Origin: Vezdaea acicularis
Taxonomy: Eukaryota
Length of the DNA: 55,128 nt
Assembly (NCBI GenBank): GCA_026025075.1
Contig: JAPEUI010000051.1
Location: forward strand, 62,001-117,128
Reading direction: 5' to 3'
The notes under the pieces are model-generated. The model worked only from the letters and a program-made list of their open reading frames with translations. It had not been told where the DNA came from and did no database searches. Position 1 is the stretch's first letter; each line of letters opens with the position of its first letter. Made by a program: the position numbers and the translations under genes. Of the stretch, positions 39,860-43,394 are shown piece by piece.

Positions 39860-41768
39860 CTAAGAAATCTCATCCATCCCCTCGTCACCCCCATTAGCAG
39901 CTCCATCCATAGCACCATTCGCACCCGCGTTCTCCACGCCAGCAGGCCCGGTGCTAGTGACAAAATAATCGTCCATCTCGACGTCGAGCTCGGCGGCAGT
40001 CTTTGGCTTCGGCTTGGGACGACCGGCGTTGCGGCCGCGGACGCCGCGACCGCGGCCTCGACCGCGGGTGGAGCTGGCGGCGGAAGCTTTCTTGTCGGTG
40101 GCGGGCTTGGGCTGGGCTTTCGGCTGGCTGTATACTTGTTAGTCCTTGGATTTTTGATATGCAGGTTTAAAAGCTTTAGAAGGGGGCTTACGTGACGCGC
40201 TCGCTCAAGGCTTTAGCTGGAGCTGGGGCGGGGGCGTGTTGGGCGTCGAGGACGACTTCGATCTGTGGAGGACTCAGCGCAAACTTCTTCTCGGATAAAA
40301 GAGATAGACCTACCTTGATTGGGCGTTGATCAACCTTTACTCCGTTTAGTTGGGACATGGCTTTGTCGGCAGCATCAGAGCGGAAGAAGGTGACCATGGC
40401 GATCCCACGGCTCTGTCCATTGGGCCCGTAGGTGATTTGAACTCTCTTAACGGGAGCAATGGCTTTGGCGAAATAATCCTAAAAGGTAGAAAACGAGGGT
40501 TCGGGTTAGTCCAACGGTCTCCTAAAGGTTTGTTTTGAGCGCGGCGTTCGAGTACGACGGGGGATAGACGGTGAAAGATGATGGCACGACTTCTCGACTG
40601 CGCTCCACCTGAGATGACCTTCACTCGATACGCAACTCAAGATTACACAACCCATCCATCAGCGAGCGAGCAGTGAGAGTTAGTAAACCGTTAGTATCCT
40701 ATCTCGATATGGTCCACTTCCGACGTGGTATGGTGCGTATGGCGGGTAACAGAGCAATTTCCCAGCTCCTCGACTTCCTCTCAAGCTCTTTAACCTGGTC
40801 CTGATCCGACAGTCCAATTGTTGTCCATCTAAGCTTTTCGAAAATAGTCGCTGGTCGTATGTATCAAATGTAGAAAAAGGCGATTCCTCGAGCAAATTCT
40901 ACTAGGCCCGAGTACATACTTCATCGAACCATGTTGATCATACGAAAGGAAGGATAACCCTTGATCAAACTTTGAAGTCCTCAAGTCGAGGCGATTTCTG
41001 ATAACATCCAAGTTATAGTGTTGCTGAACCAGAGCTGGTAGCTAGTATGTCCAGTACTGCTGTGCTAGACTGCTTGTTCTCACTGCTTCGCTCGCTGATT
41101 CTTTGAAAGTCGCGAGCCACTCGAATCGTCGATACCAAGAGACAGAGAGAGGGAGAAAGAGGTATGCCCCTTAAGGCACTACCGCGAGGCCAAGCCAACT
41201 GCACCAAGCTGCTTTACGCAAGTCATGGGTTTACGCACGGCAGCGACATTTCTCAGCTTCATAACAAGACTCTGCATCAGGCTTATAGAGAAGCGAGCAA
41301 GAGCATATGAAGGAGGTAGTCATTTTACGGCAAGCTCCAGCATGAAAAGGATATCGAAAGCCATGAATGGCAGTCGATCATGACGTCGCATGAATCGAGA
41401 ATTTCAATGTACGTTGTCGACGAAAACTCCAAAGGCTTGTTGGGCCTCATCAGTTACATACCTTAATCTGGGTCTCGCTAACATCGGTGGGCTGGGAAAG
41501 TGGTCAGTACATGGCTCCAAACCTTGGACAAAATGACATAACATACCAGTTGGCTAACGATAACCTTGCTATCACCCTTGGCGGCTGGGCCGGTCGGTAC
41601 TACATTCTTCTTTGGAACCTTGGTAGCCTTCTGAACACCACCTACAGGAGCCACGGTGCGGCCTTTACTAGGTCTAGCTCCACGTCGGGCTCCGCGACCT
41701 CCACGCACACCAGCCTTACGGTTCGATCCGAGGATATCCTCGAGCGACTGATCGAGCTTTCCAGACAT
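39860..41768 (-). CDS. YRA1: mRNA export adaptor / RNA annealing protein Yra1 (ALY/REF family)
   Basis: REF-N box MSGKLDQSLEDIL; RRM; REF-C box KTAAELDVEMDDYF. Exons 41768-41547, 41491-41462, 40478-40314, 40262-40192, 40127-39860. Confidence 0.95.
40479..41461 (-). other. YRA1: 983-nt YRA1 intron, probably regulatory
   Basis: GTATGT donor at 41461; GACTAAC branch and TAG acceptor at 40479. It splits TQIK|DYF and is far longer than the other introns here, which are about 50-200 nt. Confidence 0.9.
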
Positions 41769-43394
41769 CTTTACAAGGGCTGACCGGATTGTAGTCTCAA
41801 AGGGTTTGTGTGAAACGCTGGCAGACTTGAAAGCGCGTTTGAAGTCTGTAATAATCGTTCAAGTCGCGTCTTCGAGCGGTAGCTGATGTTGACGAATGGA
41901 GACTTGGTCGGCAGGTGTGAATAATTCGTCGGTTCCTGAAAATGGGAGCTGCAAGCCGGTGATGAAAAGAATCTGACTTGTGTTCGGACGTTTGTCGCGT
42001 CGTTGCTTGTTCGCTGTTGGCAGCCTTGTCGGAGAATGACGGACTAACGCCTTGTTTGTCAAAGATGGTAGACTTCTCTTCGAAGCCGAGTGTCGAAAGG
42101 ATTAGTGAAGAGTGGTAGAGTAGAAGGCAAGTCTTGTGGGAAAGGAATTTTTATAACGATCAAGGATAGTTGGACTTGTGTTGATGCCGAGTAAGTGTTG
42201 ATGAATGGCGAGGGAGATGGAGAGAAGGAAGACGCAAGCGCAGGAAAAACCCACAGGAGACGTTTTAGCGAGAGGTTCGCGCTAAGCCCTTTTGGATCAA
42301 CGTAGCACGTGGGTTCTCATTCATGCTCAATAGGTCATATTCTCTTCAAGGCTCTTCGTAGGTTTCATAGTCTTTAGTAGTACTAGTATTCTTTACAGAT
42401 TAGTCTAGAGTCTTTGAACAGATTATCTATATAGGTAACGAGCACCTTTGAACGAAAATGAGTTCATGGATGACGCGCCATCCTTGATGCCCCTTCAAAG
42501 GCACGAGCACCCTTTACTGTTCAGGGATATCATGCAAAGCCTACGCCAGATGTATTATACAAGCACGGCTGCGGAAAAGCCCGAGATAATTTGGCGGCGC
42601 TGTTGAGTAGTTCTAACCAAGCCTCGTTTGTATATGCCACAACTCCGTCTTGTTACGTCGAAGAAAGGACCATTCCCAAGCCCACGTTACACTTTTTATG
42701 ACCGTGGTCCAACCCTGGCTCTTCCTTGCGATGCTGGGCCTGCGTCTGCTTTCTTTTCGTTCGCAAATGTCTCGTCTTTGGCGTTGACCTCTAAGAAATG
42801 ATATAGAACAATGAGAAGCATGGAAGCGGATCCTAAAAAGATCGCAAGGCTATACAGTTGCGTATCTGAGATCATCTTGGGATCGCTTGGCTGAAGGTGA
42901 AAGGGTAAGAAGCTGTATGAAGGTCGCGTTGGCGCCGTCGAATTTACACTTTAAGAGAAACTGTAAGAATTGTAAGCAGAGAATACGGAGGGATAAATTC
43001 TCAAGAGCGCATACTATTTCGTGGGCTGTATATGGATCGACCAGGTATTTTTGAAGGATTGCAATGGCTGATGGCGTGAAGTAGATGATATGCCTTCTTC
43101 GCTCGAGCCAGGTCTCCAAAAGAGCGAAATGCCAAGCCTTAACTTATGTAAGCAATTTCGAGCACTCGGGTCATGGTTCTCTGCGCAGCCCCACCAGAAG
43201 TATTTCGGTTTAACGTTGCCTCTTAATTATCCCCTTCACAACATAAGAAGCGTCTGCTTTGCAACACTGCACTACACCGACGCTCATTTAAGGCTCACTT
43301 GAAGTGCATGATTTTTACCCGTCCTACACTGTCCTTCCACAAAACACCACTATAAACCCAGCCCAAGAGCCCGACATCCGTTCAACCTTTCAAG

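Follow-up and report, generated by a model that had tools for sequence, protein, structure and literature searches.

The window analysed here is a 55,128-nt stretch of Vezdaea acicularis contig JAPEUI010000051.1 (positions 62,001 to 117,128), and it carries, on its minus strand, a gene for an mRNA export adaptor of the Yra1/ALYREF type. Translation of the five exons reproduces, letter for letter, the 251-aa protein P0003, which is 100% identical to the query and which its source describes as hypothetical, from a Vezdaea acicularis MAG. The Pfam assignments precomputed for P0003 are PF00076 and PF13865, exon 3 gives an RRM_1 match (E = 5e-11), and relatives of the protein bear the source names RNA annealing protein, THO complex subunit 4 and mlo3. 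An RRM flanked by N- and C-terminal REF/FoP-type regions places the product in the Yra1/ALYREF (REF) family; these domains, with the 983-nt size of one intron, support the first-pass annotation of the locus as a gene of the Yra1 type that contains a very large intron. As an mRNA export adaptor, Yra1/ALYREF is both essential and sensitive to dosage; Yra1 is named after its ability to anneal RNA, and the protein it partners with, Sub2, is a helicase. How Yra1 controls itself through a long intron that splices poorly is textbook knowledge. The features of the gene, from its outline down to the signals of the long intron, are:

39860..41768, minus strand: coding sequence of the Yra1/ALYREF-type mRNA export adaptor, with RRM and C-terminal FoP domain
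41768-41547, 41491-41462, 40478-40314, 40262-40192 and 40127-39860, minus strand: its five exons, from translation
40479..41461, minus strand: intron 2, 983 nt, phase 0, between ...ETQIK and DYF..., from exon translation
41078..41099, minus strand: 5' arm of the helix, AUCAGCGAGCGAAGCAGUGAGA, intron positions 363-384
40697..41077, minus strand: variable looped-out spacer, without sequence conservation in the orthologue alignment
40696-40690 and 40685-40679, minus strand: tandem TACTAAC distal branch-site heptamers, the second abutting the 3' arm
40658..40678, minus strand: 3' arm of the helix, UCUCACUGCUCGCUCGCUGAU, intron positions 784-804
40636..40637, minus strand: first AG downstream of the distal branch sites; the branch A is 44 nt away
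40505..40512, minus strand: proximal branch site, GGACTAAC, 25 nt before the AG at 40480-40479

The other three introns of the gene measure only 51-64 nt. Intron 2 begins with the 5' splice site GTATGTAAC, and its retention would bring an in-frame TGA into the message at intron codon 4. The unusual length is accompanied by a branch site near the 3' splice site that departs from UACUAAC (here GACUAAC), and a CTAAC, CTAAT or CTGAC lies near the 3' splice site in all orthologous introns. Were the AG at 40636-40637 spliced to, a stop codon would follow after four codons. The spacer at 40697..41077 holds no ORF of note. At least one public protein model runs into the YRA1-type long intron.

The two arms form an inverted repeat of 21 and 22 nt with one bulged base, giving 12 + 9 bp around 399 intervening nucleotides. 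A repeat finder recovers it as two fully complementary blocks, one of 12 nt (40658-40669 with 41088-41099) and one of 10 nt (40669-40678 with 41078-41087). The longest ungapped run of 12 bp is unremarkable by itself, since at least 12 was reached in 2 of 60 dinucleotide shuffles. A gapped local-alignment score was too permissive (the window's value was reached in 22 of 100 shuffles) and was replaced by a duplex-energy statistic, although it was the alignment step that first revealed the shared arm sequences. By duplex energy the best long-range pairing of the intron stands at -47.6 kcal/mol against -32.1 +/- 3.4, a value reached in none of 200 shuffles. Folding of the whole intron recovers the helix in the minimum-energy structure and again in the centroid, with a pairing probability of 0.94 in the partition function. 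The long-range 21-bp intron helix described from the letters alone is thus confirmed by repeat search, folding and shuffled duplex energies. In its entirety, the intron is no more stably folded than 20 shuffled versions of itself (z = 0.15).

The smaller pairings proposed alongside the helix are all present in the sequence. A 7-bp outer match (41225-41231 with 40649-40655) is not conserved in the orthologues, and the TTGATCA/TGATCAA and GTATGTA/TACATAC hairpins lie in parts that show no conservation among them. Extensions of the helix outward and inward are likewise not significant across the orthologues (mean z -0.32 and -0.47, respectively); the outer extension stands out in the window alone (z -3.55). 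DNA contigs from four sequencing runs include close relatives, with identities of about 97%, 93% and 90%. The 40 differences listed for these contigs all fall outside 40617-40698 and 41078-41099; as a further 66 differences exist, no conclusion is drawn from the comparison.

Orthologous introns were taken from metagenome contigs, the loci bearing numbers with the prefix L. An intron occupies the same codon position in 28 loci, at lengths of 589-1139 nt, and three further orthologous introns measure 821, 752 and 753 nt. Near-identical arm sequences recur at the same places in 14 distinct orthologous loci. A pattern search found both arms within the intron in 15 of 59 loci, and inspection with duplex folding added variant arms in five more lineages (L006/7, L008/9, L035/36, L043 and L047). 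Orthologues keep the core of the 3' arm, UC[A/G]CUGCU-N1-3-GCUCGCUG, at a distance of 127-181 nt from the 3' splice site. In a protein tree the helix-bearing loci group with Dothideomycetes, Leotiomycetes, Sordariomycetes and one further lineage, and the window groups with Vezdaea. Distances along the intron are conserved across orthologues whereas the loop varies, so that the conserved module reads, 5' to 3', as some 350-410 nt of intron, the 5' arm, a freely evolving spacer of 166-531 nt (measured in orthologues between the arm cores and there including the distal branch-site motif), a UACUAAC-like branch site, 0-2 nt, the 3' arm, and a tail of about 125-180 nt that ends in an ordinary branch site and 3' splice site.

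The pairing is conserved together with the sequence. Arm-to-arm duplex energies in the orthologues range from -23 to -40 kcal/mol, and the helix reaches a probability of 0.67-0.94 in 13 of 14 whole-intron ensembles, the exception being L029 (0.04). In the L006/L008 lineage the outer half of the helix is retained, whereas both strands of the inner half have changed. Across the loci, what varies is the small internal loop that separates the two halves. The long-range helix is absent from one lineage (L012-16 and L020). Among 15 distinct sequences and 16 core pairs (240 cells), 95.0% of cells are paired, a value matched by none of 500 shuffles, while sliding the partner by 1-3 columns as a control leaves 20-52% paired. 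Of the 31 cells that deviate from the commonest pair, 19 still form standard pairs. G-U wobbles account for 18 cells, and as these would be mismatched on the other strand, the constraint evidently acts on the sense RNA. The helix is therefore conserved in sequence, place and pairing and dominates the predicted ensemble. Failure of the pairing to persist in orthologous introns, which the first-pass annotation had held out as grounds for abandoning the idea, is not what is seen over these several classes. As to the covariation that it proposed to test, two-sided change occurs in 4 of 16 pairs (5 cells), a number of pairs reached by 22 of 500 shuffles, and 7 of 16 pairs are invariant; conservation is mainly of sequence, and covariation proper is weak. 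Searches of Rfam 15 gave no match at E up to 1 for window positions 40300-41800 and no gathering-score match among 10 orthologous loci.

The helix is also coupled to a branch-site motif, and this coupling is conserved. A branch-site motif lies 0-2 nt before the 3' arm in the window and in L002, L003/10, L021/22, L024, L029, L030, L039, L006 and L035, so that the early remark that the 3' arm begins directly after a TACTAAC holds, for a site of the TACTAAC type, beyond this genome and over several fungal classes. In Sordariomycete-like loci the distal motif is degenerate and stands 10-13 nt from the arm. These observations point to an ancient, selected, sense-strand pre-mRNA helix in a Yra1/ALYREF-type gene that would set splicing efficiency within Yra1 feedback, a reading we put forward with moderate confidence.

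The mechanism may be pictured as follows. The helix of about 20 bp would form once the 3' arm has been transcribed, looping out the spacer and allowing the intron to act as one of about 550-600 nt. The strong distal branch site would then be held at the foot of a stable helix, beyond the reach of the U2 snRNP, and with the distal site inaccessible splicing would depend on the proximal branch site. With the helix open or unformed, the distal site would compete, and the balance between proximal and distal sites would determine how efficiently the intron is removed. In budding yeast, Yra1 autoregulation depends on this efficiency of intron removal. Action of the helix on U2 and branch-site choice, and hence a part in autoregulation, are what we infer from this arrangement. 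Masking of the branch site by the helix is a reasonable structural reading, since published modelling of the yeast A complex indicates that intron bases near the branch point cannot stay paired (PMC12350175). The steric argument given in that source was modelled upstream of the branch point, and its extension downstream is our own.

A splicing enhancer that works with a genuine distant branch point is somewhat unlikely in our judgement. Here the helix-adjacent UACUAAC would be the main branch site, the helix would bridge the spacer and so bring the 5' part of the intron close to that site, and the spliceosome would scan an AG-poor tail of 145-200 nt to the authentic 3' splice site. Summed over 13 orthologues, AG occurs 38 times in the stretch that runs from the 3' arm to the 3' splice site, where base composition predicts 80.8 (GA occurs 117 times), and the depletion is specific to that segment, the other two being undepleted (278 against 258.7 expected in the first, 212 against 248.2 in the second). 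It persists when the final 40 nt are left out (31 against 60.2, Poisson P = 2.5e-5) and when each lineage is represented once (20 against 38.5, P = 8e-4). In L029 the first AG past the distal site is the real 3' splice site, the distal heptamer matches U2 better than the proximal one in the window, L002, L003, L022 and L006, and the ensemble predictions leave the distal site largely unpaired. The scarcity of AG in the tail, seen in most orthologues, suggests that the distal site is productively used rather than hidden, and the original description of these branch points as "cryptic" or "decoy" may accordingly be wrong. Weighing on the other side, the depletion is absent in the window (10 against 8.6-9.3 expected), L006, L008 and L024, and in the window use of the distal site would select the AG 44 nt downstream and with it the stop codon. 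A helix that starts 0-2 nt past the motif should hinder U2, not help it, and distances of more than 30 nt from the branch point to the 3' splice site are described as rare and weak in fungi (PMC9508853).

The arrangement of the tail resembles in part the distant branch points with AG exclusion zones, with a consensus site 145-200 nt upstream and an AG-poor tail in most orthologues (PMC1431707). That class was described for human exons, whereas here a second branch site sits at the usual distance and the window lacks the depletion.

A stronger and conjectural version of the favoured reading is that the helix and abutting branch site constitute an RNA sensor of Yra1 feedback several hundred million years old, in which the level of Yra1 or Sub2 toggles the branch sites; we regard this as possible though improbable. 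The level of Yra1, Sub2 or both would govern how often the arms, which lie 250-550 nt apart, zip during transcription, the toggle between the strong distal and the weaker proximal branch site would separate unproductive or slow from productive splicing, and the near-invariant arm sequence could serve as a recognition surface. A structural switch in the strict sense, as first proposed for the helix, is unsupported, because it needs a competing structure and none that is conserved was found for either arm: candidate alternative partners of either arm are all at shuffle level across the orthologues, and the helix dominates in 13 of 14 of them. The window does have one local hairpin that would be an alternative (-20.9 against -15.9 +/- 2.6), but it is without counterpart elsewhere.

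The arms are conserved beyond what pairing needs (the invariant 7 of 16 pairs hold across classes), and for that reason a protein-binding site also fits. The helix would on this account be a double-stranded element that docks a factor deciding on export, translational repression or decay of the unspliced transcript, which we consider unlikely. A second conserved block in the orthologous introns, GCCTGGCAAGC, points to several sequence modules in the intron, and in retained-intron forms translation would stop within 3-4 codons. A specific reader would, however, be expected at the internal loop, and that is the variable part of the helix, while the tight, conserved spacing to the branch-site motif argues for the spliceosome. 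We know of no protein that reads such a helix. A related system is the constitutive transport element that lies within a retained intron of NXF1/TAP, an export receptor gene. The likeness lies in a conserved structured element in a long, sometimes retained intron of an mRNA-export gene; there the conserved sequence sits in the internal loops, whereas in the present helix it is the two halves that are kept and the internal loop that varies, and any binding of the helix by Mex67 would be hypothetical. In budding yeast the YRA1 intron has five functional modules (PMC2864733). A docking site of this sort would be comparable to the modular elements of that intron, which act through Mex67p and Edc3p. 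The unspliced YRA1 form of Y. lipolytica is an NMD target (PMC2911113), so that the Edc3 route is seemingly not general.

Cleavage offers another conceivable function, in which the duplex would be a Dicer or RNase III substrate that destroys the unspliced transcript or yields a guide RNA. Conserved arms, a variable loop and a duplex of about 20 bp suit a small-RNA precursor of the miRNA-like hairpin kind, but loops of 166-531 nt far exceed those of known hairpin precursors, no target is evident besides the opposite arm, and with Rfam silent for the window and the 10 orthologous loci the idea is very improbable. We give next to no credence to a functionless remnant of MITE terminal inverted repeats or to chance complementarity, because the arms and adjoining branch site are conserved across lineages: a 21-bp inverted repeat around some 400 nt does resemble a MITE, the arms are built of low-complexity CAGC/GCUG-like words, and the introns of L012-16 and L020 have about the length of the others minus the looped-out spacer, but the flanks differ and show no target-site duplication, each arm occurs as a single copy in the 55-kb window with 3 mismatches allowed, the same arms stand at the orthologous place over several classes around unrelated spacers, and the changes are wobble-compatible on the sense strand only. 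A nested intron, with a 5' splice site in the 5' arm and its branch site before the 3' arm, was rejected because the first AG beyond the branch motif lies anywhere from 38 to 142 nt from the start of the 3' arm among the loci and the L006/L008 arm has no GU. The SR-protein motif GUAG (PMC9767378) was also considered and has no bearing on the helix element.

The favoured helix-and-branch-site module shares much with the YRA1 intron of S. cerevisiae and other hemiascomycetes, which belongs to the same gene family and likewise forms one unusually long intron in the RRM-coding part, with a branch site near the 3' splice site that differs from UACUAAC and an early stop upon retention. The yeast branch point is GACUAAC, the same as the window's, and the yeast intron lies at the same codon. 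All hemiascomycete YRA1 homologues are reported to have a long intron whose branch point diverges, and splicing of the Y. lipolytica transcript to be inefficient (PMC2911113). Base-pairing mutants of the yeast intron (Preker and Guthrie 2006) vary in splicing efficiency (PMC2536676), and a conserved structure has been predicted for it, with conservation confined to Saccharomycetaceae (PMC4937481). The text consulted mentions neither a long-range helix next to a second, consensus branch site nor anything in filamentous fungi.

Likewise, the zipper stems of RPS17B and RPL7B are intramolecular intron helices that shorten the path through a long intron (PMC12350175). The linkers here are longer, about 364 and about 146 nt; added together they come to about 510 nt in the window and to no less than 450 nt in any orthologue, which falls outside the range given for zipper stems (PMC12350175). 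The position of the helix agrees with that described for zipper stems, but not with respect to the distal branch site, since the 3' arm lies downstream of it (PMC12350175); the 5' arm is about 400 nt upstream of both branch sites. Moreover, a second and stronger branch site is enclosed at the foot of the present helix, a feature that none of the zipper stems in the text consulted has.

The architecture appears undescribed in the literature we found, and related ideas exist for budding-yeast YRA1. The gene goes unmentioned in those large screens of structured fungal RNAs that were checked, possibly because its arms lie hundreds of bases apart. To our knowledge, work on Yra1 intron feedback has been confined to budding yeast, in which deletion analysis located the cis-elements and left them with no structural explanation. 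The finding of a long intron at the same codon in several lineages of Pezizomycotina, with a near-invariant helix of about 20 bp joined to a branch site, provides a concrete and mutable element for probing Yra1 feedback. The helix and branch-site elements may also serve gene annotators as a landmark, and the module would be one of the few long-range structures in fungal pre-mRNAs known to be deeply conserved.

The helix lies in intron 2 of a five-exon gene whose exact translation is identical to a 251-residue public protein, which its source calls a hypothetical protein and assigns to a metagenome-assembled genome of Vezdaea acicularis. Since this protein possesses an RRM and, according to precomputed Pfam domains, a C-terminal FoP-type domain, and since the source names of its relatives are RNA annealing protein, THO complex subunit 4 or mlo3, the gene is, judged by sequence, a Yra1/ALYREF orthologue, bearing out the identity proposed in the first-pass annotation. 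The relevant features, in order of transcription, are as follows.

41768-41547, minus strand: exon 1
41491-41462, minus strand: exon 2, a 30-nt micro-exon (PTDVSETQIK) flanked by introns of 55 and 983 nt
41461-40479, minus strand: intron 2, 983 nt, starting GTATGTAAC
41099-41078, minus strand: 5′ arm of the helix, intron positions 363-384
40678-40658, minus strand: 3′ arm of the helix, intron positions 784-804
25 nt before the AG of intron 2, minus strand: proximal branch site, GGACTAAC
40478-40314, minus strand: exon 3
40262-40192, minus strand: exon 4
40127-39860, minus strand: exon 5

The three remaining introns are only 51-64 nt long. Intron 2 itself is of unremarkable composition, with no notable ORF, and its retention leads to a stop at intron codon 4 (GTA TGT AAC TGA; 41461-41450). 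In orthologous loci with the 5′ splice site GTATGTTGA, GTATGTTAA, GTACGTTGA or GTACGTTAG, the stop occurs at codon 3. An extended 5′ splice site, GTATGTT[GA]A or GTACGTT[GA][AG], is kept among the orthologous introns, and in several lineages it contains the in-frame codon-3 stop. The micro-exon layout recurs in some orthologues (e.g., L003, L039 and L045), while the small intron has been lost in others.

Within intron 2, a repeat finder identified two adjoining blocks of 12 and 10 nt that are perfectly complementary; they give a helix of 21 bp that contains a single bulged base and whose arms are separated by 399 nt. A 12-bp ungapped run is not unusual by itself (reached in 2 of 60 shuffles), but the strongest long-range duplex, at −47.6 kcal/mol versus −32.1 ± 3.4, was matched in energy by none of 200 shuffles. 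Folding of the whole intron placed the helix in both the minimum-energy and centroid structures with a pairing probability of 0.94, confirming the helix first noticed in the sequence; the intron overall is no stabler than its shuffles (z = 0.15). The arm occurs as a single copy in the 55-kb window, even at three mismatches, no target-site duplication was found at the helix flanks, and Rfam gave no match to the element. Exon 4 (40198-40210, minus strand; coding for ...LSER...) carries GAGCGAGCG, 13 nt with 85% complementarity to the 3′ arm; this is probably chance, as the codons differ in other species.

A search of metagenome contigs, using an alignment of five Yra1 proteins as the query, recovered 59 orthologous loci (L001-L059). 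An intron in precisely the position of intron 2, between ...QIK and [DE]YF, could be defined in 28 of them, with lengths of 589-1139 nt, and three further loci carry the same intron at 821, 752 and 753 nt. A short intron of ~54 nt at this codon was found only in one distant group of 14 loci (L031-33 and L048-58), which has 33-46% protein identity and an unusual GTTGG intron start, suggesting either that the intron position predates the large size or that the size was lost there. Long introns at this codon are thus an old, conserved trait, in agreement with the report of a long intron and a divergent branch point in every hemiascomycete YRA1 homologue (PMC2911113). Two loci, L001 and L004, have a coding sequence without any introns and thus resemble transcript assemblies; the big intron is present in L002 and L028, which share a record prefix with L001 and may be intron-retaining transcripts. 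The public model of a Zopfia rhizophila protein (P0006; organism by source) reads ...QIKVSTCSKSPRNNGTEYFAKT..., with ~12 extra residues exactly at the intron position, pointing to a splice site mis-called within the long intron.

When each orthologous intron was scanned for its best inverted repeat, the arm sequences of the window recurred in several. By pattern search, 15 of 59 loci have both arms within the intron; variants were further recognised in L006/7, L008/9, L035/36, L043 and L047 by inspection and duplex folding. The 5′ arm consensus is CAGCGAGC-NN-AGCAGUGA and that of the 3′ arm is UC[A/G]CUGCU-N1-3-GCUCGCUG. From the end of the 3′ arm to the 3′ splice site there are 127-181 nt, and the loop ranges from 166 to 531 nt with no sequence conservation. 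Arm-to-arm duplexes have energies of −23 to −40 kcal/mol, other intron partners being at shuffle level, and whole-intron ensembles gave the helix a probability of 0.67-0.94 in 13 of 14 orthologues (0.04 in the exception, L029). In one contig of a second organism (run X3), matches to the 3′ arm plus TACTAAC (26 nt, 2 differences) and to the micro-exon are 777 nt apart, versus 758 in the window.

An alignment of 15 distinct sequences over 16 core pairs (240 cells) contained standard pairs in 95.0% of cells, a level reached by 0 of 500 shuffles; sliding the partner by 1-3 columns left 20-52% paired. Seven pairs are invariant and three have changes confined to one side; another four (5 cells) are changed on both sides, a number of pairs reached in 22 of 500 shuffles. 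Thus, the pairing expected in orthologous introns was found, while strict covariation is weak because the arm sequence is so conserved. Pairing is retained in 19 of the 31 cells that depart from the commonest pair. G-U wobbles occupy eighteen cells, where the opposite strand would have mismatches, so the constraint acts on the sense RNA. In L006/L008 the outer half of the helix (GCGAGCG/CGCUCGC) is kept and the inner half is replaced on both sides. Extensions beyond the core are not significant, save an outer one in the window.

Four loci with introns of 589-611 nt (L012, L015, L016 and L020), a sister lineage of L006/L008 in the protein tree, have neither the long-range helix nor a distal branch site; subtracting the looped-out spacer from the other introns would give about the length of theirs. 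The homologous place, ~400 nt in, holds just a short local hairpin (CAAGCAGAA ... TTCTGCTTG), perhaps the helix in collapsed form. A second conserved block, G[CT]CTGGCAAGC, lies about 200-273 nt past the 5′ splice site in 13 of 14 helix-bearing introns, the sole one without it being that of the window (41461-40479). L012-16, L020, L034 and L047 have the block as well, and L017 a variant of it; often CTTGCA lies ~45 nt upstream, with the potential to pair with the block, and GCAGAC ~30 nt downstream.

A branch-site-like heptamer is aligned ahead of the 3′ arm in the orthologues. In the window there are two TACTAAC heptamers, the second ending one base before the arm (7 in the whole window versus 2.7 expected). 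The motif is also UACUAAC in L002, L003/10, L021/22 and L006 (with ACUAAC next in L006), ACUAAC in L029 and L039, ACUGAC in L024, and ACUAAU in L030, L008 and L035, at 0-2 nt from the arm except in L008 (9 nt). In Sordariomycete-like loci it is degenerate (GCUACC, ACUGAU, GCUAAC) and 10-13 nt away. Predicted ensembles leave the distal heptamer mostly unpaired.

The helix is stable and conserved in sequence, position and pairing, it goes together with a consensus branch site, and the intron that holds it is conserved in both length and position. It would loop out the spacer and put the strong distal branch site at the foot of a stem of 20 bp. According to modelling of yeast introns in the A complex (PMC12350175), bases are not able to stay paired within 20 nt of the branch point. 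If this steric limit, modelled for the upstream side, extends by analogy to a stem starting 0-2 nt downstream, the helix and use of the distal site would be mutually exclusive, and the balance between distal and proximal sites could set splicing efficiency. In yeast, splicing efficiency is the established variable behind Yra1 feedback, as work by Preker and Guthrie from 2006 reportedly supports. PMC2911113 and PMC2536676 also support that dependence.

The tail between the 3′ arm and the 3′ splice site bears on this competition. Across 13 orthologues it holds 38 AG dinucleotides versus 80.8 expected by base composition (GA = 117), with AG near expectation in the other two intron segments. Depletion persists without the last 40 nt (31 versus 60.2; P = 2.5e-5) and with a single representative per lineage (20 versus 38.5; P = 8e-4); it is absent in the window (10 versus 8.6-9.3), L006, L008 and L024. 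In the window, the first AG past the distal site is 44 nt downstream, and its use would bring a stop four codons on. The scarcity of AG in the tail is an argument for real use of the distal site in many lineages, and may tell against the earlier view of these branch points as cryptic there, though not in the window itself. It supports competition between the two sites or, alternatively, the distal site being the real one. A riboswitch-like toggle, akin to the structural switch of the first-pass annotation, is unsupported, since no conserved alternative pairing for the arms was found across the orthologous introns.

Long-range intron helices controlling splicing and the YRA1 autoregulatory intron are both known kinds. 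Published work on the yeast intron describes a predicted conserved structure confined to Saccharomycetaceae (PMC4937481), base-pairing mutants reported to alter splicing (PMC2536676) and five modules from deletion mapping (PMC2864733). With linkers far longer than the definition in PMC12350175 allows, the present helix does not count as a zipper stem; nor does it belong to the downstream-stem class. Positions 41-78 and 782-820 of the L017 intron resemble a classical zipper stem more. No description of the helix and branch-site architecture, or of a Yra1 intron in filamentous fungi, was found in full-text literature searches or, by term, in two fungal structured-RNA screens, a yeast intron-probing study and PMC2864733.

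A tree inferred by maximum likelihood from 34 named Yra1 proteins and 15 proteins derived from the loci (omitting the very short L002, L024, L017, L034, L031 and L048) groups the window with Vezdaea aestivalis (support 98/97). It places L003 and L022 inside Dothideomycetes, L029/L039 and L035 with Leotiomycetes, and L037, L043, L045, L047 and L059 adjoining Sordariomycetes; L006/L008 and L012/L015 form an unnamed lineage near Dothideomycetes. Best-hit identities are consistent with these placements, from which it follows that the helix module is common to four or more lineages of class level, among loci that include no Eurotiomycetes or Lecanoromycetes. The original observation thus holds and its interpretation is supported in part: control of the helix by an annealing or unwinding protein is conjecture, while the element is real and ancient, and almost certainly functional.
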